Below are positions 38,601 through 64,000 of a DNA stretch of 64,000 nt, piece after piece. Position 1 is the first letter of the stretch, and each line of letters begins with the position of its first letter. Position numbers and translations under genes: made by a program. Below the pieces are notes generated by a model that saw nothing but the letters and a program-made list of their open reading frames with translations, was not told the origin of the DNA and made no database searches. The stretch lies in assembly GCA_000708835.1 (NCBI GenBank), contig DF237243.1, positions 33,691 to 97,690 on the forward strand. Direction: 5' to 3'. Origin of the DNA: Klebsormidium nitens (taxonomy: Eukaryota; Plantae; Klebsormidiophyceae).

Positions 38601-41408
38601 TGATCACAACCTAAACCGCCTTCTCATTTGATGTTACTGACCTCGTCGGGGTGGTCCAGGAAGTGGCGCCAGGTAAAAGCAATGAGCGCGTCCTCCGACC
38701 GCGGCCGCCCGTCGGGATCGTCCGCGAAAGTGCACGGCTGATTGGGGACCTGGTACAGAACCGCCGTCACGCTGTGCGTTTTGACCGCTAGCCTGCAGAG
38801 ACAAGAACACGCAGATTTCGCGACTTTTGTTCGTTTTCTTGTAGTTTATTTGTGTCGATCTTGTAATGTCGTGTTCTCCGCGCCGAGTGCACGGCTGGTT
38901 GGGCACCTGGTACAAAACCGCGTCAGGCTGTGCGTTTTGACCGCGAGCCTGCGGAAACAAGAAAAAGTTGACATTGTTGTTCGTTCGTTTCTTCGCTTAC
39001 TATCGTGTCGCCCGCAAAAGTGCGCGGCTGGTTGGGCACTTGGTACAGAACCGCCGTCACGCTGTGCGTTTTGACGGCAAGCCTGCAGACCGAAAGCATC
39101 ATTTCCTTTATTGAAGCGTCTTCGCTTTAGTCGTCTCCAATTTGTTGCTCAAGGGCTCATTCTCTCGACAACGTCGTCTTACACTGTTCTTCCGGTACAG
39201 CCGTCACGCTGTGCGTCCTGTTCGCGAGCCTTGCAGAGACAGAAGACTTTAGGAGCTGCTTTGTCGTTCGCATTTGAGCTTACTGTCGCGTCGTCAGAGG
39301 ATCGAGGGACCATCCGAAGGCCTGGCTTGACCGCCCTAGCTGATGCGCAAAGGTGGAAAGAGGGTGAAAGAGTTGATTCGCTTATCGCTCGTCTTCTAAG
39401 GCGCTCGGAAAGTGGACTTGCAAGGAGGATCTATTCTCAGCCTTACGTACGAGCTTGAGCTAGGACCCTTGAACCAGCAGAGCTGTGATTCTCATGGTCT
39501 GACCGAGACTGAAATTGTTTTGTACTCTAGGTTGCAGCGAGCGCAGATCGCGAAACTAGGCACTTACGCAGCCGCCATCAGGATGAAAGAGTCGAACGCC
39601 GTCGGTGGGGGGCTCGTATTGCTCCCCTCGCTGACCAGGAGGAGCGCCGTGCGAGTGAACTGGAGGTTGCCAGGGACGATGACCACCAGCGTATGCGTCC
39701 ATACGCTGCAGCTCGTATCCTTTTCCGTGAGGCACCTGCAAACTAACGGGGGTTGAGTTGATGCTCCTATGGCTTTGGAAAAATGTTTCGTGCTAAATTT
39801 TTGCGAGCCGGCGGCAGCGTTTGGAAGTGTTTCGTGCGCCTGCATGTACAACTGCATATTACTCTCAAGTGCAGGAATATTACAATCACCGGACGGGTAG
39901 AGTTGATTCAGGGTGTTAGGGTGGTTAGTGTGCGGAGCGGGCACAACCGGAGGTTAGACTATTTATTCTCTTGTAATCGAAGGGGCTTATTAAATCTGAA
40001 CTCGAAACACATCATCTGCAGGGCATCGAGGGTCAAGTATGTGCTCTTTGAAGCAACTTTCCTGTGCTAGCCACTGGCCTTATCTGCAGATAAGGTGACT
40101 TCTTCTTTGTCGCACACACAGACTCCCAAGGAAAGAAACAATGAGAACCGGATCTTAAGTTTGGAGGACCCTTTCTAGTTGATGTCATCACACCATAATA
40201 GCAACGAGGGGATTCGGGTCAATGGCGGCAAGCAAGCAGGACTTTTAACGAGATGTGCCGCTGCACTTAGAGACCACAAACAGGAGGCAGAGTTCCCAAA
40301 TCCACCGAACTTTGTGCTCCCTCAATGTTGGAAATTAGACAGAGCAGCAGCGCAGGGGGGGGCGAATGCGACGGCATACCGCTGGCTCGTCATATTGAGC
40401 ATGTGTCCCGTCCATGTCGAGAACGGCAGCACGCCGTGCATGACTCGGCCAGTCTCGTGCCATCTGCAATGGCAAATAATACCAACGCGCTCGACGAAAG
40501 GAAATCTGGTCTGATTGCATCATTTCGATTCGTTTCTTATGAACGTGGCCTGGGGAGATACACAGTAAGGGTGAACATCTGAAGGAGATAAGTGCACCAG
40601 TGAACAGTGAGCATCAGGAACAAATGCAAAGGCTGTTCCGCGAAACACCCTTCGCATTTGTTCCTGATGACCGCTTAGCAAAGTATTGAAGGTGAAACTG
40701 TGAATAACCGATGACGACTTTCAGAACCTTCTTCATTAGTCATTCCAGCTCCTTGCCTGCTTCAGGAAGCGAGATCAAGGTCGACGGAACACCGTTTTCT
40801 GTACCAAATGAACGTGGGCTTAAAGAGCTTAGAGCAATCCCTCAGATGGTCAATGTACTATCTGGTGAACTTTCCGGAGTCATGTCAACAGAAGGACCCA
40901 CGAAACGAAGTTAACAGTACTAGCCGAGGCTCCATCAAGTGAGCAGAACAAAGAGGTGCACAACCGGATTTACTCACAAAAGACACCGTGCCCTATTCAA
41001 TCCTGCGCGCAGCTAGAGCTAGATTGCATATCTGATATAAGGACATGCCAGGAGCATAAGATGGTCCAAGATCCTCCAAAAGCATGTGCTTCTGAGGAGA
41101 AGCGTCTTTCTATGGGTTTTCCTATTTCTCAGCCATAGACAGACCCGCTTTGATAAATGGACATTGAAAGCTTTTCACCAAAGCTCGCGTGTGCGTCGAT
41201 CTCTTGTTCCTCACCCGTAAGCCACATCCACTTTGGCGACATACTCATCGAGCGCCGTCCCGCTGACCGGAGCGCGTGCAAAGCTCGAGTTGCTCGCATC
41301 AGCACATGGGGCTTGGCAGATGATCCGAGCATAGCTAGGACAGATTGCGAAAGCTACCACTAGGAGGCTGAGCCTAGGAACTAGGTGCGACGCCATTTTT
41401 GAAAACAT
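32609..41408 (-). CDS. PhoPQ-activated pathogenicity-related protein (PqaA)/AprA-family alpha/beta-hydrolase-like protein, ~11-12 exons, with signal-peptide-like N-terminus
   Basis: Spliced exons give TALDEYVAKVDVAY/GW, GHMLNMTSQ/R, VWTHTLVVIVP, VLYQVPNQPCTF...RSEDALIAFTW, ARFPMVKAAVRAMD, FAVVGASKRGWVAWL, LGGWPFTFRDYY, MPKLLVTTSQDEFF, FWDALPGEKH...NTEH, RRDFR and VVPDTYPF. The last exon may splice further at 32635. Confidence 0.9.
35200..35785 (-). repeat. Four ~170-bp tandem copies of the acceptor plus first ~70 nt of the long PqaA exon
   Basis: On the minus strand cag|CCGC(T/G)T(C/T)TT...GGGACGC...GAGAAGCACGC...CACGGAGCA occurs at the true exon (35271) and at ~35441, ~35598 and ~35771. The most distant copy is the most diverged. 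Confidence 0.85.
35955..36137. mobile_element. ~180-bp MITE-like element with ~47-bp terminal inverted repeats, in a PqaA intron
   Basis: Left tcgattatgttcagttaggtgtatgttgagttagatcagtaccccggg versus the reverse complement of the right end, tcgaatttatgttgagttacggctatgttgagttaggtcatgcccggg. The interior is C/A-rich. Confidence 0.7.
38720..39240 (-). repeat. Four ~140-155 bp tandem copies of the acceptor plus 5' part of the PqaA exon LAVKTHSVTAVLYQVPNQPC
   Basis: The true exon begins at 38792. Copies with their own AG acceptors lie at ~38948, ~39081 and ~39228. Confidence 0.88.
40612..40669. other. 21-bp-stem inverted repeat (hairpin) in PqaA intron 1
   Basis: catcaggaacaaatgcaaagg-(16 nt)-ccttcgcatttgttcctgatg; one mismatch in 21 bp. 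Confidence 0.85.
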
Positions 41409-43334: not shown

Positions 43335-45480
43335 TGGACCGAGATTTGCCTGNNNNNNNNNNNNNNNNNNNNNNNNNNNNNNNNNNNNNNNNNNNNNNNN
43401 NNNNNNNNNNNNNNNNNNNNNNNNNNNNNNNNNNNNNNNNNNNNNNNNNNNNNNNNNNNNNNNNNNNNNNNNNNNNNNNNNNNNNNNNNNNNNNNNNNNN
43501 NNNNNNNNNNNNNNNNNNNNNNNNNNNNNNNNNNNNNNNNNNNNNNNNNNNNNNNNNNNNNNNNNNNNNNNNNNNNNNNNNNNNNNNNNNNNNNNNNNNN
43601 NNNNNNNNNNNNNNNNNNNNNNNNNNNNNNNNNNNNNNNNNNNNNNNNNNNNNNNNNNNNNNNNNNNNNNNNNNNNNNNNNNNNNNNNNNNNNNNNNNNN
43701 NNNNNNNNNNNNNNNNNNNNNNNNNNNNNNNNNNNNNNNNNNNNTAGAAGATCAATGGTGGATTCTTGGTACACGCCATCAGTTACAAGAGAAAGACAAT
43801 GGGATGGACGTTCCTGAAGAGCAGCCCATGTACCGAGATTTGCCTGTTTCTTTCTAGAAGATAAATGGTGGATTCTCGGTACACGCCATCAACTACAAAG
43901 TCTGCAGAAACTCAACAGAATGGCTTTGCCCTGTGAAAATCACGAGCATGTACCGAGATTTGCCTGTTTCTCTTTAGAGTAGTATTCGTGGAATCTTGGT
44001 ACACGCCATCAACTACAAACTCTGGAGAAACTGGAATAATCACAAGCCTGTACCAAGTTTGCTTGTTTCTCTCAGAGTAGTAATCGTGGATTCTTGGTAC
44101 ACGCCGTCATTTACAAGAGAACACACGGTGGAATGGCCGACCCTCAGCACGGTGGGGATGTACCAAGTTTTCCCCTTTCTCTTTAGAGTAGTTATTTGCA
44201 GTTCTTGGTACACGCAGTCACTGGGTACGGTTACAGGAGAAAAGTCAGTAGAATGGCCGACCCATTTACAAGAGAACACACGGTGGAATGGCCGACCCTC
44301 AGCACGGTGGGGATGTACCAAGTTTTCCTCTTTCTCTTTAGAGTAGTTATTGGCAGTTCTTGGTACACGCCGTCAGTTACAAACTCTGGAGAAGGTCAGT
44401 GGAATGGCCGACCCTGCAGCGTACCAAGATTGCCTGTTTCTNNNNNNNNNNNNNNNNNNNNNNNNNNNNNNNNNNNNNNNNNNNNNNNNNNNNNNNNNNN
44501 NNNNNNNNNNNNNNNNNNNNNNNNNNNNNNNNNNNNNNNNNNNNNNNNNNNNNNNNNNNNNNNNNNNNNNNNNNNNNNNNNNNNNNNNNNNNNNNNNNNN
44601 NNNNNNNNNNNNNNNNNNNNNNNNNNNNNNNNNNNNNNNNNNNNNNNNNNNNNNNNNNNNNNNNNNNNNNNNNNNNNNNNNNNNNNNNNNNNNNNNNNNN
44701 NNNNNNNNNNNNNNNNNNNNNNNNNNNNNNNNNNNNNNNNNNNNNNNNNNNNNNNNNNNNNNNNNNNNNNNNNNNNNNNNNNNNNNNNNNNNNNNNNNNN
44801 NNNNNNNNNNNNNNNNNNNNNNNNNNNNNNNNNNNNNNNNNNNNNNNNNNNNNNNNNNNNNNNNNNNNNNNNNNNNNNNNNNNNNNNNNNNNNNNNNNNN
44901 NNNNNNNNNNNNNNNNNNNNNNNNNNNNNNNNNNNNNNNNNNNNNNNNNNNNNNNNNNNNNNNNNNNNNNNNNNNNNNNNNNNNNNNNNNNNNNNNNNNN
45001 NNNNNNNNNNNNNNNNNNNNNNNNNNNNNNNNNNNNNNNNNGTTATTTGCAGTTGTTGGTACACGCCGTCAGTTGAACGAGAAAGTCAGTAAAATGGCCG
45101 ACCCTGCAGCGTACCAAGATTGTCTCTCTCTCTTTAGAGTAGTTATTGGCAGTTCTTGGTACACGCCGTCAGTTACAAGTTCTGGAGAAAGTCAATGGAA
45201 TGGCTTTGCGCTGTAAAAATCACAAGCATGTACCAAGATTGCCTGTTTCTCTTTAGAGTAGTTATTTGCAGTTGTTGGTACACGCCGTCAGTTGAACGAG
45301 AAAGTCAGTGGAATGGCCGACCCTGCAGCGTACCAAGATTGTCTCTCTCTCTTTAGAGTAATTATTGGCAATTCTCGGTACACGCCGTCAGTTACAAGAG
45401 AGAGCCAATAGAATGGCCGCCCTGCAAGGACGTACCAAGATTGCCTCTGTCTTCATAGATCAGTTATTGGCACTTCTTAA
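43335..45480 (+). repeat. Tandem array of ~100-120 bp units, each with a ~52-53-bp imperfect palindrome (GTACCAAG...CTTGGTAC); interrupted by two assembly gaps
   Basis: At least 12 complete or partial units visible. Cores start at e.g. 43830, 43950, 44050, 44160, 44315, 44421, 45111, 45231, 45330 and 45442. Consensus gtacc(a/g)agattgcctgtttctctttagagtagttattggcagttct(t/c)ggtac-acgccgtcagttacaa plus a 30-50 nt variable but mutually related linker. Confidence 0.92.
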
Positions 45481-45676: not shown

Positions 45677-48600
45677 ATGGCATCGACCGTGCTTGTCGTC
45701 GGCGCACCTCTGCTCCTCACCTCGACCGCTCCGGAGTCCAACGCCGGCTTGCACTCCACGCTGGCTGCTGGCGAGCAAGTTCGGGCCTTTGCCGCCATCA
45801 CGATCGGCGGGTCCGACGGCTGCTCTTCTCAACCCGATCACAAAGTCACGTTCTCGGACCTGAGGACCGTTCCGGCTGCAGTCACACCGTTGCCAAACGC
45901 CGGAGGAGTACGAGGAGGGCATCCGTCCTACACCGCACGACGAGCGCACGGTGACTTCCTCTTCGACTACGGGTTCGCCTTCTGCCTCCATCAATCGCAG
46001 GCGTTCACGAAGCGCGGTTTTGGATCCACTTGCATCGGAAGCACGTGCATGGGGAAGGTGCCCCTCTACTCCCGCAGTTTGGATCCTTTCCTCTGGGATC
46101 GGAAAAGGAACCGTGGCGGTGCGATCATCTGCCCTGGTGGAGGAGGTCACCTTCTCTGCCTCCGCTGTCTTGACGCGCTTTACGCTGGGGGTCGGCCGTT
46201 CGTTTCAACCGCCACGGGGGAGGTCGTTGACCTTGGTGACCTCTTCAGGAAGTACGAGGCCTTCCCCGCCTCGGGGGAGCTGAAGGAGGCACAGCTGGGG
46301 CAATCTGCGGCGGAGGGGGGACACCAGTTCTTCGTACAAAGACGGGATCTGGTCGCATGCCCGTTCTGCAAGGAAAGTCGACAACGAAACCGGGGCCGCC
46401 CTGAAAGGAAGAGGCTCGAATCCGGGCCGACTCCGAAGGAACTCGGCTCAGCCGCGATCTTTGCGGAGTTGAAGCGAAGCGCGGTTCCTCCAACGATCAT
46501 CGCACCCGGCCTCTTTCTCCTGCCGCAACTGGACGTCAACTGCCGGCTCATCGACATCTCGTTGAGGGACGGAAGGCCCGTCAACGTCCCCAGGCTCGTC
46601 CAGGTGGACCACTTGGGTGACTACACCTGCATGTGCGGCCAGAGGGCGTGCAGAGAGCACGACATCCGTTTTCTCAGAGAAATCGCTTTTCTCGACGGAT
46701 GGTGGCAGTCGGTTTCGAAGGAGGTCGAGCCCCTCTTCGGCTCGTTCAACGGCAAAAGAGGTTCGCACGGGAGGTGACGGGTACCGGACTCGGACGAGTG
46801 CTCCCACTTGATCGGGACGGTCAGCTTGGAGTGCCTCTGACTGGCCTCAATGCGGAGGCCTGGCTGGGGCCGCAGCTGCGCGTCTTTGTGACCTCTGAGG
46901 GAGCCGATGACTCTCCGGCGGTCTGCGTGCTCGGTGGAATGAGCGCCTTCTGCAGCAGATGCTCGGAACGGGAGCGGTGTCCGCACGTACAGAGGGTGCT
47001 TACAGCAACGGGGGTGGGAGATGGGGTTCAGAGCGGGCCTGCTCACAAGGCTACCGAGAGGGCAGCAACAAACTCGGACAAGCGTGCGGAGAGGTCAGCG
47101 CTTCGAGCGTCGGGACAGAGGAACATCTGGGTCTGCAACGACCCCATGTGTCGAAGGCCCGACTCAAAGGCTGCGTGCGTGCATGGAGGCACGCTCGAGG
47201 AGTGGGAGTGCCTCCCTGCAGCAGCCTTGGACATGGGGCACAGCCACAAGAAGATCGACACAGTCATGAGCAGGGGTGGGCAGCAGGTCACGAGCCTCTG
47301 CGAACGATGGGGTGATGAGGGGATCCGGAGGCGGGATGGGGCAAAGTACTTCTGCGCGCCGAGGCCCGTTGAACCGCTCTCACCTTGCGGGCGGCTATGG
47401 CAACTGGAGAGCAGGAGAGGATCGCTCTATACGGCTGGGGCGCGGTATCCGGTGATGACGTACCGGCGGGTGTGTACAACCGCACCAGGACGAGAGGCGG
47501 CGTGCTGCTCGGTGGCTTACGACGGTCAGGTAAGATCTAGTTCTCACCACCTGGACCAATTACCGATTGCTCCGTGTTTATTGCACTTTGTGCACGCCGT
47601 TGCTTTTTCCTTTTAGCCTTAGCACCTTGGAATGCTTTGAAGCACTCTGGCCCGCCGTGTGTCCGAATGGCAAGCTTATGCACGTCGGATTTCAGATAAT
47701 ACCGGGTCTTTAGCCTCTTTTCTGGATGCGGCACCCATTGCAAGTTGGACAAGTCTTGTACGTGATACAACTTGCGCGCCTCAAGAGTGGTCAAGCAGCC
47801 AAGTAGCGACTCGTACCCTGTATGAATGCAATAATCGCAGACTACAAGCTCCTCGTGGGGAGGCAACGGCCACACCAAATCAGTAAGACGGCCGCACTTG
47901 GAGCAAGCTTGCCACGGCCGGATCTCCATCAGCGGTTTAGGACCAGGTGTTCGATTGAAAGGCACCGGGAATTCGTGCATCACACCTCCAATATACGCTT
48001 GGGCGTCTTTGCAGGTTGATGCGGAAGCTGCCAAGTCTCGAAGAGAAAGGGCACCCTTTTGACCGATGACGCTCAATGCTGAGGCGAACTTCTCATTTGC
48101 AGCCATGGTTGTCCCTTTAAGACGCCAATCAAAACTACTGGTTGGTTTCAAACGTAGGATTCGAATGATTGAATGTATCTCTCTATTTCCTTGCAGGAGG
48201 ACGCCATCTTCAACTTCTCCGGGACGACGCTCATCTCGCACGGCCTCCTGCTGCGCAACCACTTTGCGGCAGCCTTGGGTGCTTCCCATTCGCTCAACTT
48301 TGACGCCAACGACATGGCGACCAGAAGCCTTGAAGGCCCGAGCGCATCCAGGCTGGACGACCGCGTCTTTGACGCAGCGATGCAGGCCTTCAACGATCTC
48401 GCAGCCCGGCCTCGGATCCAGCACGTCTGCAAACGTCCTGATTGCGCTCATCTGTACACGTCTGAAGTTCGAGCTGCTGAGGCAGACGCAGCGAGAGCTG
48501 GGTACCCACTCCAACCGGAGCGGACCGAGGGGTCGCCCCTGAACCTTTCAACCTACGCCTTCAGCCGGGATAAGGTCATCACGTTCGACGGCACATTTTT

Positions 48601-50473
48601 CCCCAACTCCAGTGCTATGCGGGATAGCAGCGAGGCCTCTCTGTATAGCATATGTGAGCCGGACCCGGGCGCACCTCGCGTGGCAGGGGGTTTCACCCCT
48701 CTGAGCGTCGGTGGGGTGCGGCCCTCGGACGTTCCTCTCGAGGGGATCGACTGCCCTTGGAAGTTTAGGAACGGGCTGTCGGAGCTGAGGCCGGCCGTAC
48801 GAGCAGCGGCCTTCCGATGGTGTAACTTTCGGAAGGGCCAGGGTCAGGGGGCCAACTTGCCTCTTTCGGCGGAGGAGTTCGTTGCCATGCGTCAGGGGTT
48901 GCCGGCAAACGTGAGGGCCCTGATCGACCTTGCGACAGAATCCGGGGCCTGTGCTGATCCCAAGAACTGCGCCATCTGCAAGGCGGTCCCGCGCCGGCCT
49001 TGGATGGACGAGGTGTTGAAGAAGGGTCCTGTAGCGCCCACCGGTTGGTGCCCGACCCATTTCCAGCCATATGCGGCCCTCCTGCACGCCCTCCTGATAC
49101 CCCGCTACAGCTGGGTTTTTGGCCACATCGTGACACTGAAGCTCCTTCGACGTCTGTTGCTGGAGGGGCCTCTGGACGACCTGGAGCTCGCTTACCTCGC
49201 CCAGGATGGGCCAATGCTAGCCAACATTCTCCGACTGCACGTGCAAACGGTTTCTCCAAGGCAATACGCGTTTCCAACGGCACTGCGTCCGCTCATTCGG
49301 GACATCTACGCCACCAACCTCCTCTGTTCAACGAACCGAGTGCCAACCGCCCTGGCAGCGCCTCAACTTGCTCCCCTCTCGCTGCCCTCCTCGATGCTAC
49401 GGAGCATCTGTGGGCCTTGGAGTGTGAGAGACGTCGGTCTCTGGGCAACTCAGGAGATCCTGGCATGGTCTATACGGAACAGCGTGGAATTGCGCTCAAG
49501 GGGGCCGCCAACGCTCTCCTCTTCGAGATTGAGGTTCGAGAGCCGCAATGCTACGGTTCTGATGGCTTTCTACGGGAGGCCTCGGCTGTCTACAAGGAGC
49601 GCGTGGGGGCCGTGTCAATCTACGACTTCCATCCGCTGCTCTATGGCCGGCCGCAAAAGTTCACGGATTGGGAGGACGCATCCGGTCGGGGGAAGAAGGG
49701 CTCGGAGGAGCGGCTTGCGCAGCACTGTGGGGCCCCGAATCCTCGCTCGTCGAAAGGCCGAGCGGGGATGTTCATTGCATGCTGCCAGGATCGCGCGCCC
49801 CTCGGCTACCATTGGCTTAAGGGTGGCGAGAGCGTGTCCGATAAGTTGGGAACGGTCCTGATCACACGCTTCCCCTTCAAGACGCTGCGCGGCCTGACGA
49901 TAGTGGAAGACGCTGCCTGTAATGCCCAAGAGTGGCTTCTCAACCGGTGAGTGATACAAGTTGCTTAACTTGTGCATCTCCATTAACTTGAGATGCATTA
50001 ATGTTGTGGGTCTTCAAGCTTCTATTGAGCTTTGGTGACCGAAACGCCCTATGCATGCAAGTTTTCCGTTCATGGCCTTTACTAACAATCTTTACAACTC
50101 TCTTTTGTGCAGGGTGCCACAGCTGGCAAAATATATGCTCTTCCTCGTCGACCGCTTTCACTCTGGCCCAATCAGCTGCGCGCCCGCTGGAGCGGCCAAG
50201 CGTTATGCGACGCACACTTGCTCGCCGACTTTGTTCATCGACTCCTACTCGCAGCACGATCATACCGTGACAACAGCCAGTGAAGGGATCAATTCGGGCT
50301 TAAAGCGATCGGCGGCTAGTCTCCAGCAGATCACAAGCATTAGACGCTTGATGAGTAGGATCACAACGATTCTTGACACTCTGTTTGAGAGATCGAAGTA
50401 TGCACTGTATTATCAGTCTCAAAGCGATGTTAGGAGCAGTCCGCTACGGGAGATTATCAGGGCGTCTCGTTAA
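45677..50473 (+). CDS. KDZ (Kyakuja-Dileera-Zisupton)-type transposase with N-terminal RING-like, SWIM-like and CxC-type Zn domains; 2 introns and 2 apparent -1 frameshifts
   Basis: Exons 45677-47529, 48197-49946 and 50113-50473 (GT-AG, in phase). Motifs: ICPGGGGHLLCLRC...CPFC; YTCMCGQRACREH; FCSRCSERERCPH; RRVC...YDGQ/EDAIFNFSGTTLISHGLL (CxC-like); ITFDGT; GMFIACC; GGES...LITRF; IVEDAAC...LN/R; FLVDRFH...HTCS; ASEGINSGLK, matching the KDZ catalytic-region pattern. Frame changes near 46750 and 49320. Confidence 0.8.
47537..48106 (-). CDS. XPA/Rad14-like C4 Zn-finger plus XPA-C domain protein (189 aa) with possible F-box-like N-terminal segment, nested antisense in KDZ intron 1
   Basis: ATG 48106 to TAG 47537, wholly inside intron 47530-48196. 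CSKC-x18-CDYC is followed by LTTLEARKLYHVQDL...YYLKSDVHKLAIRTHGG...AKAKRKKQRR, paralleling XPA CEEC-x17-CDNC...LITKTEAKQEYLLKDCDL...LYLKLQI...WGS. LSLRDLAASASTCK recalls an F-box helix. Confidence 0.7.
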   Translation of the reverse strand: MAANEKFASALSVIGQKGALSLRDLAASASTCKDAQAYIGGVMHEFPVPFNRTPGPKPLMEIRPWQACSKCGRLTDLVWPLPPHEELVVCDYCIHTGYESLLGCLTTLEARKLYHVQDLSNLQWVPHPEKRLKTRYYLKSDVHKLAIRTHGGPECFKAFQGAKAKRKKQRRAQSAINTEQSVIGPGGEN

Positions 50474-50762: not shown

Positions 50763-53744
50763 TCATTGTTCGGACTCCTCCTCCTTGCACGCACGCACGT
50801 GACTTTGTGAGCAGTTCGTGCACAACGGTAAACCCTCAGGAGAAAGTCTGACGGTCGATGGGCCTGCTGTGGGGTCCTTTTTGGCCATGTAATGGTCCTT
50901 GCCGTCAGTATCTTCCTTATAGCCCGAGTATCGACACCATCGTCCGACCCACTCAATGGTAGACGACCACAACTTCTCGGAATGCAGAGCTTTGCATATG
51001 ATTCCTTCCGGGGGGAACCACCATCCCTTGTGTGTTGGGATTTTCTGGATGCTTCTTGCTTGAGGTTGCATATCAAATTTGCCGTTGAGGTTACTAATTA
51101 GGACATTGACGTCCATATGTCGGTCCTCTTTGATGTCGAGTGCCGAGAGAAACGTATCGTATGTCGCTTTAATATCCACCGAAGCTACCCAAGTTTCTAC
51201 AGAAGGGTGAAAGCAACCGTTCTCAAGCAGCGCCTGCATCATCTTGACGTGTGGAGGTATGGAGTGATCCTTTAAACTCTCGCCCCATGCGGTGACTGGG
51301 ATCGTCTGCGGATTCCAATCAGAGATGTCGATCGAAGAGAGGTACTTATAGAAGCTCAAAGCCGTTTGCGGATCTTGGAGCTCTTTTATGAGACCGTCGA
51401 AGTACTCCTTGTTGCCAACCATGGCGCCAGAGCATTCCTGGCAGGAATACCGCCGATCCCCCGCCTCTCGTTTGACCGGCCATGTATTATTTGTTGTGAA
51501 AATAATGTTGCTCACGTCCTTGGTCTTTATGGCATCAAAACCCTTCTTTTCTACGCAGGTCTCCGACTCTGTTATCAGTGACTTCATCCGATCGTTGAGC
51601 TTGTAGGCTCCTCCCCAGTTTCCAGCCTCGTCAAAGACGATCAACAACCGATTGGCAGATAATGCATTGAATTGACCGATCACCTTTTCGATCTCATTGC
51701 AATATAGATAGTTTTTGCTTCCAATGATCATCATCCCCAAGAAGTCGGCCAACATGGATTTGCCGCACCCTTGCGGGCCTCGAAGAACCCAGGCAACTCC
51801 GATCTTCTTTCTTGGTCTTTGAACGGCGTGGGCCATCCACTTGACGTTGTATGCGAATCTTGTTTCGCACCCGTCGCTGAGGATGGCCCTGATGTGCCAC
51901 ATGAGCTTGGGCATTTGCAACTCACAGTCGGCCATCTCGGAAGGTTCTAGCTTTTGCAGAAGAGGCTTGAACTCCAGTCCGCAGAATAGGTTGAAGTGAC
52001 GCGAAGTAACCTTGCTTAGGTCAGGCTCGAAGACAATCCGGTCGTACTCCTGTCGCTTCGAGTTGCTTTCCCAGAACTTTGCAGCTTCCTTGTTCTTGCC
52101 GGGCAGACAATCCAACTGAATGTTCCTGCACCGTTCAATAAAGTTGTGGCCTGGCCTTTCTATCACCTCTTCTCGTTGGAGGTTGCCGTCTTTGTCACGG
52201 CAGAAGACGAGCTCGGTATAAACCGTCTTGTTTCCTCCAATCACAACCGCAAAATAGGCGTTCATCACCTTGATAAGAAGATTGTACATGTCGTTCCTGC
52301 GCTTCTTCCTTTCAGCCGCTTCCTCTTTACTAAGCTTCTTCGTTTCATCGCTTCTTGGAACCAAATAGCGCTCACATTCTCGGATCATGGACGCCTCTGC
52401 TCTCAGCGGCAAGCACTCCGGCCAATAATAGATCCCAAGCAAGCACGCTAGACGTTTGATGCACTCTGAACTTAGACAACGGTAAAGTAGAATGGCACCA
52501 TTGCACAGGATGCTGAAGTTGTTTGAGACGTGTTCGCACCCGTTCAAGCACGTTCGCGTGCCAATCGTTTTAAACTTAAGGACTTGCCAGCCTGTCTGAG
52601 TCCTCATCCCAACACCATTGAAACGACTTTGGTCCTCTGGCAACACGTTTTGCAGCATCTCTCTAATTGCAGTGAGAGCGGGCTGCAACCCAGGCAAAAT
52701 GGAATCCATATTCAAGTCCGAGCCCCCTGTTGATTCTTCAGCTTGTGTGTACTGATTGTTGGGCGAGCTGATGCGCCTGTTCGAGTTGCTGAGGCTTTTG
52801 TTGACCTCCACATTTCCCGTTGTACTACCGACTGCCTTTGTTGACGTGTCGTTCAGGAATCGAACCAACCACGGCGGCATAGCGACTCGTGGTGTGGTTT
52901 CATCACCTTCTATCCAGGAATAGCCAAAGGCTCTGCCCTTGTTATCTTGGTAACTCGAGGGGCTTACAAAAGCTATTCCGTTGCTTCCACGACCATCAAT
53001 CGCCCATGTAGTACCTTCGTGAAGGATTGTCGAGAAGTTTAATGGATTGAGAAGCCCTTCGGTCTTGCTTGCAGAGAAAAAGTAGTGTAAACCGTTTCCT
53101 GAACCTGTTCTTGCCTTTAATGTGATGATGTCACCGTGTTTCTTTATCAATTCCTCCCACAGTTCTGTTCCAGCCTCCTTCCCTGCGTTCGTGTCTGTGG
53201 CCTCCTTCCTTTCTGCGTCTACATCAAGCAGAAATATGTCCGAAATCCCACACAGGACCGCCAAAGCGTTCACGTTCGATGGCGCTCGGCAAACATAGGC
53301 ATCGATCCTCTGTTTGTATGCCTCGGTGGACGTCCATAATGGTTTGTACCCTCCTTTACTGAAGATGGGCTTCTTTTTCCCATCCGAGTCCATTTCGAGC
53401 CTTAACGGGATGGCATACATGCCTTGCTTGTAGAGCGATCGGATCGACTTTACCAAAGGGTACTTGTGTCTGTTGATCGATCTCCTAGGGGTGTTGATGG
53501 TGGTATCGTCTGGTTCGAAAAGTGCCCCACTCTGATCGACAACCAGCAGCCGAATGTCGGCATTTGGCGGCATGTCAGTTGATAAATCGGGGTTCTTCGT
53601 TGGAGCATTCATACTCGGCACCTGCTGTGGCTTCGGCACTTCATTCGGTGGTGCTGTGGCCAAAGCAGCATCTAGGGTCTGATGAGGCCTTGAGCCACTT
53701 GCTAGCACACCGGTTTGGAAGGTGCTGATCATGGCGGGCTCCAT
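50763..53744 (-). CDS. Intronless primase-helicase: N-terminal bifunctional Prim-Pol, central Zn finger, C-terminal D5-like SF3 helicase (993 aa)
   Basis: Prim-Pol motifs FLLDVD, RTGSGNGLHYFF, IDGRG...FVSPSSY, PWL. Zn motif CLNGCEHVSNN...YRCLSSEC. SF3 Walker A GPQGCGKS, Walker B IVFDE, motif C IIFTTNN, and GDRRY. Confidence 0.92.
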   Translation of the reverse strand: MEPAMISTFQTGVLASGSRPHQTLDAALATAPPNEVPKPQQVPSMNAPTKNPDLSTDMPPNADIRLLVVDQSGALFEPDDTTINTPRRSINRHKYPLVKSIRSLYKQGMYAIPLRLEMDSDGKKKPIFSKGGYKPLWTSTEAYKQRIDAYVCRAPSNVNALAVLCGISDIFLLDVDAERKEATDTNAGKEAGTELWEELIKKHGDIITLKARTGSGNGLHYFFSASKTEGLLNPLNFSTILHEGTTWAIDGRGSNGIAFVSPSSYQDNKGRAFGYSWIEGDETTPRVAMPPWLVRFLNDTSTKAVGSTTGNVEVNKSLSNSNRRISSPNNQYTQAEESTGGSDLNMDSILPGLQPALTAIREMLQNVLPEDQSRFNGVGMRTQTGWQVLKFKTIGTRTCLNGCEHVSNNFSILCNGAILLYRCLSSECIKRLACLLGIYYWPECLPLRAEASMIRECERYLVPRSDETKKLSKEEAAERKKRRNDMYNLLIKVMNAYFAVVIGGNKTVYTELVFCRDKDGNLQREEVIERPGHNFIERCRNIQLDCLPGKNKEAAKFWESNSKRQEYDRIVFEPDLSKVTSRHFNLFCGLEFKPLLQKLEPSEMADCELQMPKLMWHIRAILSDGCETRFAYNVKWMAHAVQRPRKKIGVAWVLRGPQGCGKSMLADFLGMMIIGSKNYLYCNEIEKVIGQFNALSANRLLIVFDEAGNWGGAYKLNDRMKSLITESETCVEKKGFDAIKTKDVSNIIFTTNNTWPVKREAGDRRYSCQECSGAMVGNKEYFDGLIKELQDPQTALSFYKYLSSIDISDWNPQTIPVTAWGESLKDHSIPPHVKMMQALLENGCFHPSVETWVASVDIKATYDTFLSALDIKEDRHMDVNVLISNLNGKFDMQPQARSIQKIPTHKGWWFPPEGIICKALHSEKLWSSTIEWVGRWCRYSGYKEDTDGKDHYMAKKDPTAGPSTVRLSPEGLPLCTNCSQSHVRACKEEESEQ

Positions 53745-54874: not shown

Positions 54875-55982
54875 GCTTACGTTCGTAGCTTCTCATAGCC
54901 GTGGGCCAATCGTGAAGCATCCGTTTGGCTACAGCCTCCCGTTGAACAATCGAGTGGTCCCCCTTAAAGGCGTCAGATATGTAGACATGTCTGAGATGGT
55001 TCATTGTAAGGTACCGTCCTTTGCTGAATTCGATGCCGGCGACGAATCGACTGAGGTAATTGTCGGACATTGGCGTCGTGACATCATTGAGCCGTGTCAA
55101 GAAGTATGCCCTTGGAATGAGGACCAAAGACCGTTTGATATATTGCGATAACCGTTTGCTCAATTCGAAATCCTGGCGTCCATACCGAGATGCGGTTTTG
55201 AAGGTCGTAAGTGTTAAGACGAAAGAGTCTTTGGAGCACTCCTTCAGCGCGTTGCCAGATTGCTCGTGCACACCCTGCGCTTCGGCGCTATGAAAGGAAC
55301 CGTCTGGCTTTTGTAGAGGGAGATTGCTGAAATCCCGACGTTTTGGCGGCTCGAGGGTATTCGCGGCTAGCACGAGATGCTGAAAGACCGTTTTGATGTC
55401 GTCTCGTTCTAGTGGTCTTCCAAGTTGGTAAGTGTGGACGATCTGCCGTCTGATCTTTCGCCCGAGCTCTTCCATTTTTGCCTTGATTTCTGCCATACTG
55501 ATCCAGTTTTCTTGCTCCCTTTGAGTGGGCGTTTGACATAAGGTTTGATTGCTCTGCTTGTTTTTCGCCAAAAGGAACGCGGCAAAGAACTGGTCGTACG
55601 CTTCGCCCCATTTTCGTGACTTTGAGATGGCCATCAGGGGTGTAAGCTTGTTGCAGAGGCTTCCTGGAGACCATGCCGCCTTTGCGGCGTTGCTTTGGCG
55701 TTCTCTTATGGCGTTCACGATGGTGCCGGCGTCTCTGATCCAATCTATGTCTGTCGGCAGCTCCGCCGTTTCATTATTGGTGATTAAGCCGTATATGATC
55801 CTTAGGCTATTGATGTACTGGGAGCAAGTTGATTCGGCACGATGTGAGCCGTCCTGTAAAACACTGAGATGAACCTGCTCACCACACATAGGGACTGCTC
55901 TCAGCTCGTTTGCTTGGTTGTCCCTGGGTGCTTCTTCGGTGCTTTGCTGAGTTGCCATTGCTGTTGTTGTGATCGTATGCAA
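54875..55982 (-). CDS. Tyrosine recombinase/integrase, intronless; last codons run into gap
   Basis: Catalytic pattern R (PPKRRDF), K (TFKTASRYG), HxxR-like (MNHLRHVYIS), H (KRMLH) and Y (MRSY) in the expected order. QENWISM also recalls integrases of Polinton-like viruses and NCLDVs. Confidence 0.85.
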
Positions 55983-56982: not shown

Positions 56983-57609
56983 TCATTCTGAAAAGGGTGC
57001 TCTACGAGTCTTTGAAGGGTTAGCAAGAGCGTCGAGATGGAGATCCATGACTTCAGAGTTTTCATCCCAGAAACGGCTGCGGTAAGGGGTTTCAGAGGCA
57101 TCTTCATTGGCCCAATCATGCGGAACGTCAGTTGGAGATCTAAAGTCTATTTTGTATGCCAGATCGTCCGCTAAAGCCTTGCTTCTTTTCTTATGCATTT
57201 TGAAGTGTGATTGTCGCAGACGTTGGGCGTCTCTTCTTGCCCTATTGGCCCGCTTTAAAGCAAGACTCCAGTCAACGTGAACCGTATAAGGAGATTCGTG
57301 CAAACCGGATTTATCCCAGTACGCATAGAAGCCCTCAGCCACCAGAGCTCTAACGACACTGCGTGTGATATGATGAAGGCTGAATGGCTTGGTTAGAGCT
57401 CGTATGCCGGCTAGGATTCCAATGTCGAGAGTCTTACTTAGAAGACCTTGCTCTTCGAAGCACCTTACAATTGCAAACTTTACCGATTCAAACACTGAAC
57501 GGTCCATCTCTTTTATCATATGCTGCTCACGTGGTATGAATCCAATTATCGCTTCCATACATTCGTGTCGAAAACATGATTGATCACATGCCATGCGGTA
57601 TACATGCAT
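56983..57609 (-). CDS. Hypothetical protein (208 aa)
   Basis: Uninterrupted ORF convergent with 56229-56933 (49-bp gap); helical, protein-like composition. No motif recognised. Confidence 0.6.
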   Translation of the reverse strand: MHVYRMACDQSCFRHECMEAIIGFIPREQHMIKEMDRSVFESVKFAIVRCFEEQGLLSKTLDIGILAGIRALTKPFSLHHITRSVVRALVAEGFYAYWDKSGLHESPYTVHVDWSLALKRANRARRDAQRLRQSHFKMHKKRSKALADDLAYKIDFRSPTDVPHDWANEDASETPYRSRFWDENSEVMDLHLDALANPSKTRRAPFSE

Positions 57610-57814
57610 TGGGCTAGATATCTATGTGCATAGATAGGCTCAGATCCTTACCACTGCTTGGATTTAAGGGGCAACTTAGCTCTCACATACAAATACAATG
57701 GCTACATCTAGCATCTTGACAAACAAAGCGAATAAATTACAAGCTCGAGGATGACCACGTGATCAACGTTGACCCTAAGCTAACGCAGCACTAACAAGAT
57801 ATATACACCTTGAG

Positions 57815-60800
57815 CTATGTGCTCCTTGGAGGGGCGATTATGCAAGGCTCCACTACGGTCTCAATCTCAGGTGGGCCTAACTCGGCAAGCAAAGGGGCTC
57901 CAGAGGACCTACGTAGTAAGTGGTCAAACTCGCTCGCATCTACCACATCCAGGAACTCTCTGACAGCTGGAAGAAGCTCCATCCGGCACTTCCAAAACTC
58001 CGGCACCTCCCGGAATCGCAACTTCGTCAGCTTCGCCATGCGAAGGATGCTCTTCTCAGCCAAGCTGAGTTTGTAGTCGTTCAGCCCCGCGCTCGACCCG
58101 TAGTTCTTCCCCTTTCCCCGCCGCGCTCCACGGGAAACTTCCACGAGCTTCCCCAGCTTGAGGCCCATCCACCCCAAAACCACGTTGACTGCCTTCTTAA
58201 TCTGCCCCGGCAGCAGATGAACCTGCCCCTCTTTTGGTCTCGGTAGCTTGAAGCGGAACAATTCGGAGGGAGTACGGGAGGCCAGAGACGAACTATCCGC
58301 AGCAAACTTGGCCCGCCCTTCAAAGATACCAGTCTTCATGAGCCGTTCCCTCAAACCGCCTGCTAAGAGCGTAGGGGTATACCCCTTGTCGAAAGGATGC
58401 GCCAGACCCAAAGCGCTGATCAGTTCCTTAGCATACTCAACCCTTAGGATTTCGAAGCTCTTGGGACCCATCGCCTTTTGGTCCAGCGTCTGCGCTGGGG
58501 CTGGGAGCAGTACCTTAAGGAGATTCGCCAAGGGCTCCGAGAAGGGCGACTTGTAGGCGGCCTGTGTCTTCAGGAAGAAGCTGTCATCGAGGTCCTTCAA
58601 ACCATAGAATGCGCAAGCCTCGTACTTGGCGACCTCGTTATGCTGCGTCCCCCTGTCTCTCTTCACATCTCTCAAGCTAGCCAGCTCTGCATATTCCACT
58701 GCCCCGATCGTCTTTGCTTCGATGATGTCGTATGCTTCTTGAGTTAGCCCCCCTCTGCGCTTAGACTGCTTCGTGGGCTCCACGTAAGGCTCCACTTCCA
58801 CAACGTGGCCGGCTTTTGCGACTTGCGCCTGGAATTCCTGAAGTAAGCGAGCGTCCGAGTTGCGTCGCTCCGCCTCCGTGTGTCCCAGCGTCCGAAAGAG
58901 AGGCCCGTCCTCGATCAACTGGACTGCCCCCGTCGCATTCTCAGCGCGAGAGCGTACACGACTCCAGGCAGCCGCCGCGCGTGAGGTGCAAGCTTGGAGG
59001 AACTGCAGCGTCTCGGCGGTTGTCACCCGTCTTGGGGGGAGAAACACCCCAGGCTGGCCGCCCTGCATGATCAACGAAGCACTGGTCAGGCTCTGATCGA
59101 GCAAAAGACGTCAGTGTCTTTTACGAGAGCTGCCTATTCTCTGACAATCACGCTGGACTATGGAATAGGCTGTGCAAGGCTCATTGTGCTACTGTGCTTA
59201 TGTGGTCAACCATTTTGCCTGACCCGCCCAAGTCAAAAGTCCAATCAAGCAGAAAAACGTCCCCCGTAGCTCACAAACGGTTCAACGGTTCAATGACACT
59301 TGTGTTGAAGGCTCGACTCTGCAAATCGACCAAGGTAGGGCTGCTAGGCCAAAACATCATTTCGTGCTCTCACAGACTTACCTTGGCTTTCCCTTTCTTG
59401 CAATCCGAGTCTGAGGGGGGCATCGATGCCCGCTCTGCGCGGTGGGGCGCCTTCAAAGGGCTCCCATCTGCAACCTGCTCGTCGAGTCGCTCAACAGCAT
59501 CGTCTTGTTGCACCTGGAGAGTGAGATCGTGCGCAACCATGAGACATCGATCATTCACAGACATAACTGCAGGGACAGATCATCCTAGTACGCTTGAAAA
59601 GCCACTGGTAAGCAATCAAACACTGATTGAAGTAACTTTCTCTGAAGCGCAGCAATGCTTAGAACCATTCAGCTCACGTGCCGGCCGCGTACCTCTGAAG
59701 TGACATCCTCATCCGCGTCTTGTACCGAAGGCTCCGGCTCTGGTGAGGACGTTCCAGCGGTCTCCTGCACATAATCAATTGAGCAGTATAAAGGCGATGC
59801 GAATCATCGTCACCCTAGTGACAACAACGACTCGGGGTTCCAAGCATTCCCTTCAACGACGGAACGTGACCGTTTAGAGCTTCTGGTGGAAGTTACTTGA
59901 GAGTCAGTCACGGATCGACCATATGTTCCAGTCCAACGATGAAAGCTCCAACGTACTACTAAACTCAATGTGCCGCGCTCGACCATTGGCAGAAACTACT
60001 AGAAACTACTATGAGTTTCTAACTTCTAAAGGTACAGGCTCCGATCTAGGATCATTGTAGATGATGCAACTTACCAGCTCGATGTCCAGATCTGCCGACG
60101 GAACCTCGGGAGCACAGTCAAGCCGTACGGAGATGCCCTGCTGCACGAAGCAGTACACCAAGGGGCTTTCCGTGCGACGGACCCGCAGCGAGGCCTGCCA
60201 AACAGCCCGAGCTGTCGTGCTCTGCTTGCACATGTACAGGTACTTGCTGTGAAACCACTCCTCGTCGAAGTTCACCCCCGCCTCGACCGAAGGGCTGTAC
60301 ATCAGCAGTCGAACTTTCCAGTTGACATTGACGTTCTCGAGCAGAGCAGTGTTGTCACCCCCGCTCATCGCCCTATGCATCAGAATGTCCCCCTCTTCGA
60401 GCCCAAGCGAGTGCCGACCCCCCCCACTCAGCACCCGGTCCCGTATCCTATCCAAGACACGGGCTGACATGCTGACGACGACGACATTCTTTCCGCTGGA
60501 TAGGTCGCGCACGATGCGGTCCAGCCAGAGCGCTTCTTCTTGACAGACGCGGAACGTGAGAGGCACCTGCAGGAAAGTTTTAATAGAGATTCAGAGCAAG
60601 TATGAGCGCGGCCTAAACACAGTTTACTAGTCATCGAGCCTGTCAGGCGCTACCTGTGACGGACGCAGCAGAGAGGTGACCGAGAAAGCACTTTGACGTC
60701 AACTTGCAACCATTCTATGCTTGGAAGGAAGATAAATTGTGGTTCAATCTCTCAGAGGTAGTCATAAAAGGGGAGTATCGAGCAACCCACGGAAGCAGCA

Positions 60801-63620
60801 GCGGCTTTGCCAACACATGCTCAGAAGTTGGTAGATCAGCATTGACTCTATGAGCGCACGCGCATGTCTTCTTAACCACAAAAGGAACCAGAACCTCGAA
60901 TCAGTGCATGCAACTAAATTCCTTGTACTTGTCGGCTTGGATCGTGGATGGTACAAGGAAGCTCACCTTTGCCCGTCTCGTATTGATGACGAGCTTCCCT
61001 GGTACCTTGGCCAGCTGAAAGAAGTCGTGCTCGCGCTGGCCGTAGCCGTCGTCCATGGCCAGAACCCGCTTGGCTTTCTGCACAATCTCGAGGAACAGCT
61101 CTCCGGTTTCGAGGCCGCACCTCAAGGTCGCAGAAGAGAGATGCGCCAGAATGCTGGCCGCCTCGTCCAGAATGACGAGATCGAAAGGGGCGACCTCGCC
61201 AACGCCGTGTGGGCGCAGGTTGAGCAGGCTGTCCACCTGAACCACGACCCAGGGGAACACGCTCCGGTTCTGGAGAGCAGTCAGGAAGTTGTTGGGGCAG
61301 TCCGGGTCTGGAAATAGCTCGTCCTTGTAGTCAGCCTTCAGATCGAGGTAGTTCGCAGAGTCAGGGAAGCGCTGCTTGAGATCTTTGGCTTGAGCGATGC
61401 AATACGTGATCATGAGTTTGGTCACAAGGCGCCCGTCAGCTTGAAGTAGGTGACGAATCTCCTCGAGAATGCTCTTGCAGAACTCCGTCTTGCCCGTGCC
61501 CACCCCAGAGCGGAATGCGAGCAGCTGAAAAGCTCCAGCGAGCCACCTGTGACAGCATGAAGCCAAAGGTTACATTGGTATCTGGATTTTGAGCCAGATT
61601 CGAGAGCGCGCTCCTTTCTTGGACCAAAGGATGCAAAGTGCAGCCCTGTTAATGTGTATAGAATCGTGCACCAAGAACGACGAGACTTAGGATGCATGTC
61701 GCAGGAAATGGAACTTTGTCAGATTGCGAAGATGTAGAAGCCTGTGCTGAGAATGAAGCTTGGACCTCGATCAACTTTTCTCCAGCAGCAGAGTGGCAAT
61801 CCTTGCTGCAGAATTATTATGAAAACAACCAGAACACATTACTCAAATACATGCAACAAACAACTCTCAGATGTGGGATGTGGGAAAATTACTGGTCAGC
61901 GACCGTGTTAAGCTTCAGCACGTCCGTAGTTGGCTCTTGCCCATGTGCCACACGAGCGAGGAGCTCGGGACTCGATGCTGCTGGGTCTCGCTGCAAGTAC
62001 TGCATGTCCACGCGGACAGCACCAGACTCGTAGTTGATGTCGTCCTCGAACAAATCCCCGAGGTAGAAGGCCTTGGCCCGGCACGGCAAATCAGATTCCC
62101 CACCTTCAGAGTTGGTGCTGAAGCAGAGGGCATAAATCTTGCCCTTGGGAGTCAGATGACAGGTCAGGTTCTGGTGGTTCTCGTGGATCCGACCCGTGTA
62201 GCAGGGTTCCGAGCGGTCGAAATAGTTGAAGCGATCGGGTCCCTCCACGTAGGCGGTGGGGTGCAGCCGCTCCCTGAGCAGCTCCAACATGCGGGCCCTG
62301 ACAAAAGCCTCGTTCTTGGGCGTTCGCGTGGTCCCCTCGTGAGTCATCTGCTGGGGGGTCTTGTACTTTCGATGCAGATTCCCAGGCAGCTGGAACGGCA
62401 CCTTGATCTCCTCACGAGCCTGCAAGAAAGACCAGAAGCACCTGATAAGCATATTGCCCCAGCTCATGTAAACAAACCAGCAGGACCAACGGACACATTA
62501 ACAGCAGACTCTGAGGAAAGGGTTCGCATGCGGTTTAGCAACAAACGAGGACAAACGGGACAGAACAATTACAGATTGCTTCAATAGCAGCAAAACGGAG
62601 TGGCGTTCTACGGAAGTAAGGCCATAGGCAGAAACCGCATGACTTACCTCAAGTGGTTCCAGCCAGGTAACCAGGGCGTCCTTCCAAGTGTGACCCAAGT
62701 TCACGAACTGAAGGACGCTCTCAGGTTTCTCGATCTTGGCGCTTCCCGGCGTGCGCCACTCTCGATCTTTCGAGTACACATTCAGGTCGATGAGGGGGGC
62801 GACTGTAGGATACCAGGGCTGCAGCCTTCTCTTGAGACGGGTCGCAAAGTGCGCGGCGCCACTCTCGAAGTTGGACGCAAAGACAAGCTGGCGAGGGAGA
62901 AGCTGGTTGATGGTCAGGTGCAGGCTGACCTTGGCCTGCCCGCCGCTCTCCATCCAAACGAAGCTGCTCGGCTCTAAGTCTAGGGCGTAGCACTCCTTGA
63001 AAACGATGGTCGCCCACTCCTGGATTATCTCCATTACTTCCTCCAGCGTGTACCGCCCCTCGCTGGTTTCCCTGTGCTCCGCCGCACCACGCGCTTCTTC
63101 TCTGGCCCCACTGCTGGGCCCTGCTTCCGAGACAGCTGCACTATCCCCCGTTTTTGCCAAGGCTGCATCTGCTTGCTTCGACTTTCGCCTGAAGGGGAGC
63201 CCGTCCTTGCCATCCAGATCCAAGTAGGGCTTGCACGGCTGTCCGTTCTGAATGACTTCAAACACGGACCTGTGGCCGTCCAGGTTTCTGCAGGCCGTCT
63301 CCCAGTCTGGATAAGAGGCGAAGCTGCGCCACCCGATTGGGACCCCAGCTTCGGTGCGCATACCGGACCACTTGTGGAGCGCCACTTGCACCTCGTGGTT
63401 GAGCAGCGCAGCCTCTTGCTGCATGAAGTGCTTGGGCCCAGGAAAACGGCTCAGGTTCTTCCCCGCTTGGTGGAAGCAGTTGGTGCCGAATTCATGCACG
63501 CGCAGTACTCGAAAGCCGTCCTTCTTGAAGACCTCGTTCCCAGTCAAAGGCTCAGAGCGAATCTCTGGCTCAGGCACAGCGCTGAAGCCCTGGGGCAGCC
63601 CCCGTTCGGCGCCGCGCTTC
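57815..63620 (-). CDS. AEP primase fused to UL9-like (origin-binding protein) SF2 helicase, >=1340 aa, >=7 exons; first exon lies further right
   Basis: Exons 63620-62648, 62419-61893, 61546-60967, 60566-60075, 59764-59693, 59513-59382 and 59062-57815 join in phase. AEP motifs KPYLDLD, KVSLHL, IDLNVYSKDREWR; Zn motif CYTGRIHENH. UL9-type helicase motifs SGVGTGKT, VQVDSLLNL, VILDEAASILAHL, AMDD, YSPSVEAGVNF, QASLRVR. Confidence 0.88.
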
Positions 63621-63740
63621 CTGGAAAAGAGGATCACACAGGAATCAGATCGAATGCCCTCTGCAGGTACCTACTACTACGTGCCTCTGTATCCAAGGTC
63701 CGGCAGAAAGGGTTCGGTGGCATACAACAAAGCGGTATGT

Positions 63741-64000
63741 GTACCAAGCTGCGCATGTCTCTTCTTGAGATGTAAAAGGCTGTTTCTTGGTACGAACGTG
63801 GTCAACTACAAACACGCTGATTCGGTAACTCAGAGTTACGGCGGTTCTTGCAGTCAAGTACCAAGCTGTGCCTGTCTCTTTTTAGAAAGTAAGAGGCTGT
63901 TTCTTGGTACAAACGAGGTCAACTACAAAAGCTAACTTCCGAAATCCACACGCATAGCCCTCCTTCAGTCATGTACCAAGTTTCGCCTGTCTCTTTTTAG
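63741..64000 (+). repeat. Second array of the palindromic repeat family (2 full units plus 1 partial; period 115-117 bp), continues off window
   Basis: 53-bp cores GTACCAAG...CTTGGTAC at 63741-63793 and 63858-63910, and a third from 63973. Each full core is followed by (g/a)aacg(t/a)ggtcaactacaaa and then a largely dissimilar 45-nt or 43-nt linker. Same orientation as the 43.3-45.5 kb array. Confidence 0.9.

Follow-up and report, generated by a model that had tools for sequence, protein, structure and literature searches.

A spliced and transcribed AEP-primase/UL9-helicase gene of nucleocytovirus type in Klebsormidium nitens, from a family possibly spread by mobile elements

Where endogenous giant-virus genes carry introns, these were long taken as a sign of decay, and have lately been regarded as an adaptation to latency. 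In the streptophyte alga Klebsormidium nitens, seven introns, spliced across many studies, lie in a core replication gene, and not in one for latency or the capsid. It lies in a stretch of 64 kb (assembly GCA_000708835.1, contig DF237243.1, positions 33,691 to 97,690 of the forward strand), called the window below and numbered from its first letter; the sequence to the right of 64000 and the paralogous loci of K. nitens are known here only from protein models and transcript contigs. The gene encodes an archaeo-eukaryotic primase (AEP) joined to a UL9-type helicase, has at least seven spliceosomal introns, and is transcribed and spliced. The reading that we favour, with slightly more confidence than doubt, is that of a nucleocytovirus-type gene whose family spread as the replicase of long-resident mobile elements, the present copy being likely in decay.

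Exons, introns and transcripts

Joining of open reading frames (ORFs) gave seven minus-strand exons and six GT-AG introns, yielding 1340 codons whose only stop is the terminal one. The joined translation equals residues 606-1945 of KFL_002940130, a public K. nitens model (1945 amino acids; P0001 in our protein set), while residues 1-605 of that model have no place within the window. In transcript order the introns measure 228, 346, 400, 310, 179 and 319 nt, with phases 0, 2, 0, 0, 0 and 0. Exons have a GC content of 0.58-0.61 and introns of 0.45-0.49, and the GC content at third codon positions (GC3) of the gene, 0.72, is host-like. No introner signal was found, the six introns having no match to one another or to the rest of the window. 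The features are as follows, from the 5' end of the gene.

63621..64000, minus strand: seventh (upstream) intron, 3' part, phase 2; contigs leave the window at 63626 in 7/8 runs
62648..63620, minus strand: exon A, AEP primase-polymerase domain (DxD, SxH, D); structure model, PDB match, contigs
62420..62647, minus strand: intron of 228 nt, GT-AG, phase 0; skipped in 8/8 runs
61893..62419, minus strand: exon B, Zn-binding Cys/His module that follows the AEP, with an alternative donor at 62103; joining, alignment, contigs
61547..61892, minus strand: intron of 346 nt, phase 2; skipped in 7/8 runs, with read-through contigs in 7/8
60967..61546, minus strand: exon C, helicase motifs I, Ia, II and III, Cys at the motif-Ia Arg; Pfam Herpes_ori_bp, E 2.9e-7
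60567..60966, minus strand: intron of 400 nt, phase 0; skipped in 7/8 runs
60075..60566, minus strand: exon D, helicase motifs IV-VI; base 60172 absent from transcripts in 7/7 covering runs
59765..60074, minus strand: intron of 310 nt, phase 0; skipped in 8/8 runs
59693..59764, minus strand: exon E, 72 nt, acidic linker; joining, contigs, paralogue alignment
59514..59692, minus strand: intron of 179 nt, phase 0; skipped in 8/8 runs
59382..59513, minus strand: exon F, 132 nt, linker; joining, contigs
59063..59381, minus strand: intron of 319 nt, phase 0; skipped in 7/8 runs
57815..59062, minus strand: exon G, C-terminal domain, likely of the UL9 DNA-binding type (predicted; model with pLDDT 82); out of frame in transcripts

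Transcript contigs were sought in eight of the 24 listed runs, none of which is recorded as RNA, their type being inferred. All six introns were precisely spliced out in contigs from seven of these runs (six studies), and in the eighth, of low depth, three of the six were skipped. The contigs occupy the exons and leave the neighbouring genes and most introns uncovered, an RNA-like pattern. In seven runs they also leave the window at 63626 and enter an upstream exon, extending up to 1523 nt further; this exon corresponds, in frame, to the preceding exon of KFL_002940130, with four codons extra. Position 63620 is therefore a used acceptor, and the repeat array at 63740-64000 is intronic. An earlier note on this DNA, made from its letters, had proposed the stop-free frame of about 1340 codons, at least six introns, the two small linker exons and the acceptor with the array in an upstream intron, all of which the model and the junctions bear out; the linker exons (59764-59693 and 59513-59382) are joined in transcripts, and exon E has a homologous linker in four paralogue models (34-39% identity). 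A candidate first exon at 63723-63671, with an ATG and a 50-nt intron of fitting phase, was dropped, since transcripts join another exon.

Two variant forms were also seen. The second intron (346 nt) is read through by contigs in seven of the eight runs, its retention leading to a stop directly after the AEP-Zn part, and the frameshifting alternative donor at 62103 gives a 557-nt skip in six of the eight, with a short side of only 24-26 letters.

Domain architecture and closest relatives

By the features examined here, the protein is an AEP plus UL9 helicase of the type of mimivirus R8 and F1055L from African swine fever virus (ASFV), as the earlier note had suggested. A profile built from 23 relatives matches UL9 of herpes simplex virus (HSV) with E 6e-35 and human PrimPol with E 8e-13. 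The structure model of exon A (pLDDT 82) has human PrimPol as its best PDB match (E 6.7e-10), and its nearest viral folds are those of Yasminevirus, the Marseillevirus origin-binding protein (OBP), ASFV F1055L and ostreid herpesvirus 1 (OsHV-1). In an alignment of 55-60 homologues AEP motifs I, II and III (D739/D741, S837/H839 and D883) are invariant, as are the Zn ligands, Walker A and B and the motif VI residues, all of them intact in the window copy. Motifs I-VI of a UL9-like superfamily 2 (SF2) helicase are present, except that the motif-Ia Arg is a Cys in the window and an Arg in transcripts.

For exon G, residues 547-832 of HSV-1 OBP were the best of 48,161 chains compared with the predicted model, at a Z score of 6.7, which is below the trust level of 8 (191 aligned residues, root mean square deviation 6.8), the runner-up having a Z of 4.1; Foldseek returned no match at E<=0.001 (E 2.9). 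On this modelling, exon G is likely a UL9-type DNA-binding domain.

At E 1e-30 the wider AEP-UL9 family counts 2,856 representatives. The window protein has its closest homologues among environmental or virus-like sequences, rather than among the ordinary conserved host genes that would have spoken against a viral type, and the nearest Atlas clusters hold Herpes_ori_bp proteins of eukaryotic records (Mucoromycota being commonest) and of nucleocytoviruses. An AEP joined to a UL9-type helicase has been described in mimivirus R8, ASFV pF1055L, OsHV-1 and yaraviruses (PMC11253617), and the K. nitens protein shares with them a single chain of AEP, Zn module and UL9-like SF2 helicase, the catalytic motifs and the AEP fold. 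In contrast to that group, the K. nitens gene is nuclear, multicopy in the host genome and carries at least seven spliceosomal introns, and its model has a 605-residue leader, with a StopGo-type motif and an acidic tract, and an acidic linker before the C-terminal domain. HSV-1 UL9 is alike in helicase motifs I-VI and, weakly, in the C-terminal region, and, unlike the K. nitens protein, it has no AEP.

Differences between the window and its transcripts

The same four differences between window and contigs (at 60172, 62779, 61401 and 58118) were found in every run covering the sites, the runs being dated from 2015 to 2024. The base at 60172 is missing from transcripts in all seven covering runs, which shifts the frame two codons past motif VI, creates a new stop at 59455-59453 and removes the last 516 residues. 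At 62779 transcripts encode Leu in place of V886, a position held by Val in 58 of the 59 homologues that cover it. The difference at 61401 has the opposite sense, with C1154 in the window and Arg both in transcripts and in 57 of 57 homologues; this motif-Ia position aligns with R112 of UL9, whose mutation to Ala abolishes binding to single-stranded DNA (PMC12543377). The fourth difference, at 58118, is silent. Wherever one of the two, window or transcript, is damaged, the other thus has the ancestral state; two near-identical, separately damaged copies are the simplest reading of this, and this copy is likely decaying.

These results modify two claims of the earlier note. Its intact catalytic motifs hold for AEP I-III, the Zn ligands, Walker A/B and motif VI, and fail at motif Ia, in addition to which the transcripts are frameshifted. 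Purifying selection at present on this copy finds no support, since three of the four differences strike a near-invariant residue or the frame; moreover, only one of ten paralogue models covers the whole core, partly owing to scaffold ends. Past selection is visible in the catalytic positions that are invariant over the 55-60 homologues. As a caution, an ORF that is intact in a draft assembly may not be the transcribed copy.

A family of paralogues in K. nitens

At least 11 K. nitens AEP-UL9 models were counted, including KFL_002940130 (nine among 11 matches in one search plus two among 10 looked-up proteins). They fall into two deep subfamilies whose cores are about 34% identical and which have in common an N-terminal module (45% identity over 101 residues). 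In trees of 690 columns, with a root chosen by us and no cultured virus included, the K. nitens models formed a single clade, with an SH-like support of 0.99 (91 sequences) and an SH-aLRT of 100 (43 sequences); three of 88 rows of low cover were removed for the first tree. This clade grouped with Tetrabaena socialis and environmental proteins, apart from the low-GC giant-virus-like ones. The long nuclear residence put forward in the earlier note agrees with the single clade, the depth of its subfamilies and their common module. Eight of the ten paralogue models lie on contigs of at most 31 kb, a repeat-like setting, and loose ends of transcript contigs match paralogue sequences, which indicates that other copies are transcribed too.

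One second-subfamily protein, P0133 (KFL_005490050), has a leader with a domain named ubiquitin-like in its source, which resembles the leader of P0007 and is without the StopGo motif.

A StopGo-type motif ahead of the replicase

In nine of the 11 models, a Leu-rich run is followed by a StopGo-type octapeptide, which was found in none of 236 other proteins examined. In KFL_002940130 it is canonical and occupies residues 228-235, outside the window; the contigs, which extend up to 1523 nt past it and of which 30 letters beyond the edge were read, are long enough for the motif, and its in-frame placement is predicted by the public model. Eight models have a canonical octapeptide or its M or W variant, one has Ala at the first position and two are without the motif, the last residue being Pro in four, Met in two and Trp in three. 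The chance of such a motif per leader is about 5e-6. In most paralogues it forms an island of conservation, with 9-12 of 14-16 residues identical around it and about one third in the flank, and it is common to both subfamilies. Two base changes separate Pro from either the Met or the Trp ending, which makes an origin by drift unlikely; the M and W copies are related and correspond to about three events.

The StopGo core has been broadened to (D/G/C/N)(V/I)ExNPGP, with Met or Trp as rare last residues of about 90% activity (PMC12846837, 2026). The K. nitens motif is alike to StopGo/2A of RNA viruses and non-LTR (long terminal repeat) retrotransposons in its Leu-rich run and (G/C)(V/I)ExNPG(P/M/W) core (PMC12846837, PMC12338488), and differs in preceding a DNA replicase, in a streptophyte alga. 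A 2026 preprint, in its accessible part, places StopGo in RNA viruses and retroelements; the accessible text of PMC12846837 has it nearly absent from plant viruses, and the table seen in PMC12338488 has a different protein as its sole Klebsormidium entry and no Nucleocytoviricota row. We found no report of this gene family, or of StopGo in a DNA-virus helicase, in the literature searched, where supplementary lists may hold such genes.

Judged by its sequence, the motif would likely release the replicase from its leader. StopGo on a viral-type replication gene is the more surprising element here, introns in algal viral inserts being already known. The natural M, W and P variants make convenient material for testing whether ribosomes of the green lineage skip.

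Three of the 11 models (P0001 at 114-141, P0007 and P0009) also have a C-x2-C...C-x2-H finger before the StopGo motif. It presumably resembles EsV-1-7 repeats; a library search gave no match.

Neighbouring genes and repeat arrays

The other features of the locus are listed here.

54876..55958, minus strand: tyrosine-recombinase (YR)-like ORF, cut by an N gap; profile match, E 6e-7
50763..53744, minus strand: Prim-Pol plus D5-type superfamily 3 helicase, 993 codons, unbroken; Pfam PF09250 E 1.6e-10, PF19263 E 5.5e-19
45677..50282, plus strand: spliced Cys-rich gene, frameshift near 49350-49400; sequence reading
43745..45478, no strand assigned: left array, same family and orientation as the right array, N gap inside, 7 box pairs; alignment to the right array
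63740..64000, no strand assigned: right repeat array, period about 117, inside the seventh intron, inverted 8-bp boxes

The earlier note had called the D5 and YR genes intronless, which fits the D5 gene over its 993 codons and, for the YR, extends to 361 unbroken codons before the N gap. Its suggestion of modules of different age is in line with two compositional classes (GC 0.59 for the UL9 exons and 0.50-0.51 for D5 and YR; D5 GC3 0.59). The catalytic pattern of the YR, which we take to be that of a tyrosine recombinase, has no library match (Pfam, NCBIfam, PHROG and PDB). A profile of two YR-like ORFs beside close UL9 relatives matched it with E 6e-7 among 967 window ORFs. Neither it nor the D5 gene has relatives in the viral contigs, as far as these were searched. 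Major capsid protein, A32 packaging ATPase, PolB and VLTF3 had no match among the scanned window ORFs (part of 173), where, of such genes, just the D5-type one was seen. Of Polinton-like features, neither a capsid or packaging ATPase match nor a long flanking inverted repeat was seen in the window, beyond which the right end lies. At this locus the runs examined give no cover on the YR, on D5 or on the left gene, which is not evidence of their silence. In two runs, contigs about 90-96% alike to D5 at 53024-53548 indicate that D5 paralogues exist and are transcribed.

The left gene has no Pfam, NCBIfam or Atlas match. Its end resembles, as we take it, a KDZ transposase, for which no KDZ/CxC profile match was obtained. 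In one of its introns, across which a paralogue transcript appears to be spliced (loose end at 47530), an unbroken antisense ORF of 189 codons (47540-48106, minus strand) has a weak match to XPA/Rad14 (TIGR00598, E 0.025). A YR gene with a transposase-like gene at one flank recalls the 'Plavaka giant repeats' of Amoebidium, which are YR-rich clusters with a transposase at the flank (PMC11244446); those clusters are intron-poor and in tandem, whereas the window replicase is intron-rich and its transposase-like gene a candidate only, and Plavaka is unrelated to KDZ (PMC12730594).

The two arrays are 75% identical over 75 nt (E 1.8e-9). Their units carry inverted 8-bp boxes 35-37 nt apart, of which there are nine pairs in the window and none in 100 shuffles; one pair has a compensatory change, and five units gave hairpin z-scores of -1.2 to -2.9. 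The boxes recall those flanking the spacer of herpesvirus origins, and the arrays are candidate origins. In viral contigs the box-pair pattern gave 36 single matches, about chance level by estimate.

Two close environmental loci, on GC-rich contigs, have YR-like ORFs of similar kind without library match beside unbroken AEP-UL9 genes (L047, 1097-2542; L051, 9607-10809); L051 also holds a nuclease of Mrr type and, in part, a second copy of the end of the helicase gene. AEP-UL9 genes with predicted GT-AG introns were seen at L058 (11850-12060) and L065 (11170-11230 and 12060-12130), one intron shared in motif V and one in Walker A; both are from one 96-kb metagenome contig of 40% GC with collagen, glycosyltransferase and TnpB-like genes. 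Their predicted intron positions differ from those of the window gene, which suggests that the family gained introns more than once.

Mobile replicase, resident virus or host gene

In the mechanism that we propose for an intact member, host RNA polymerase and the spliceosome produce the mRNA, its splicing being observed. The ribosome would skip at G(V/I)ExNPG-P/M/W and free a short leader from the replicase, whose C-terminal domain would attach to a DNA box that occurs in repeats; with the duplex opened by the SF2 motor, the AEP would lay down primers for a host polymerase, much as in a proposal made for giant viruses' small nuclear relatives. The neighbouring YR is a candidate integrase and the arrays are candidate origins. 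At this locus the motif-Ia Arg is gone from the window sequence, and in the transcribed sequence the C-terminal domain is out of frame. Origin binding, skipping, YR integration and mobility are what we infer. A bolder version, an undescribed capsid-less, self-replicating nuclear element derived from giant viruses, with an intron-rich AEP-UL9 replicase, a functional StopGo, palindromic-array origins and a YR integrase, seems to us a tentative and on the whole rather unlikely proposition; if true, it would supply the first natural case of StopGo on a gene for DNA replication, and the first in the line of descent of land plants.

Several points weigh against a long-resident mobile replicase. The paralogue loci are known here from protein models, and it is likewise predicted models, beyond the window, that supply the StopGo motif; one of these has Ala first, which is not a listed variant, and one second-subfamily model is without the motif. 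Long branches may draw the two subfamilies together in trees that lack a cultured virus. A YR-like ORF occurs in just four of 125 UL9-bearing loci, of which the two close pairs are weak support. The right array lies within the gene and thus is not an element terminus, and tandem arrays are also found in introns of an unrelated window gene (38718-39244). The runs are RNA by inferred type, not by record, and assembly error or strain difference may account for the sites at which window and transcripts disagree.

This last point would make the locus a single copy, with a gene simply frameshifted or intact and neighbours that are unrelated insertions in a repeat-rich spot. The draft assembly has three N gaps nearby, and contigs of 263-404 nt from introns show no difference from the window. 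Against this, errors would need to have brought back the ancestral state at two of the three informative sites (the frame and V886), and the same four differences recur in runs from 2015 to 2024; we hold a single copy to be very improbable. Somewhat less so, while still improbable, is a domesticated host gene, kept for a PrimPol-like AEP-Zn product or an AEP-helicase product, in which retention, alternative donor and frameshift all trim the origin-binding end. Its transcription in seven studies and host-like GC3 would suit it, as would the end of translation after the Zn module upon intron-2 retention, at the same residue where one paralogue model ends, and the helicase activity that residues 1-535 of UL9 retain alone (PMC12543377). 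Against this, the transcribed sequence alters the near-invariant V886 of the AEP, many paralogues are broken, and no other named plant or streptophyte contributed an orthologue to the homology matches obtained.

A possibility that we take more seriously, though we doubt it, is repeated integration of a temperate Klebsormidium nucleocytovirus whose latent genes already had introns and StopGo, the paralogues being genes of different viral strains. Inserts of nucleocytoplasmic large DNA viruses, including core genes, are already known in K. nitens (PMC5294986, PMC12344493), and spliced viral genes in mirusviruses (PMC12768974) and in punuivirus, which expresses 61 intron-bearing genes in latency (PMC13692296). 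The window gene resembles these in being of viral type, with host-type GT-AG introns and nuclear transcription; the two intron-bearing environmental relatives on the 96-kb contig and the deep divergence of the subfamilies would likewise suit viral diversity. The window, in contrast to those viruses, has no virion or polymerase hallmark genes among the ORFs scanned and holds a small cluster of a family with many diverged copies, and the host-like genes stop some 2.5 kb to the left of the left array. With seven introns the gene exceeds the punuivirus mean of 2.5, and the positions of its introns in the window are unlike the environmental ones. The mobile replicase is the account that we retain.

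Further observations

An ORF of 212 codons (56986-57621, minus strand) with GC3 0.42 and no family match occupies part of the interval from the YR to the helicase gene's 3' end. Unrelated arrays with periods of 100-170 nt occur at 13466-14302, 24016-24399, 35198-35765 and 38718-39244, at least one of them in an intron of a PqaA-like gene.

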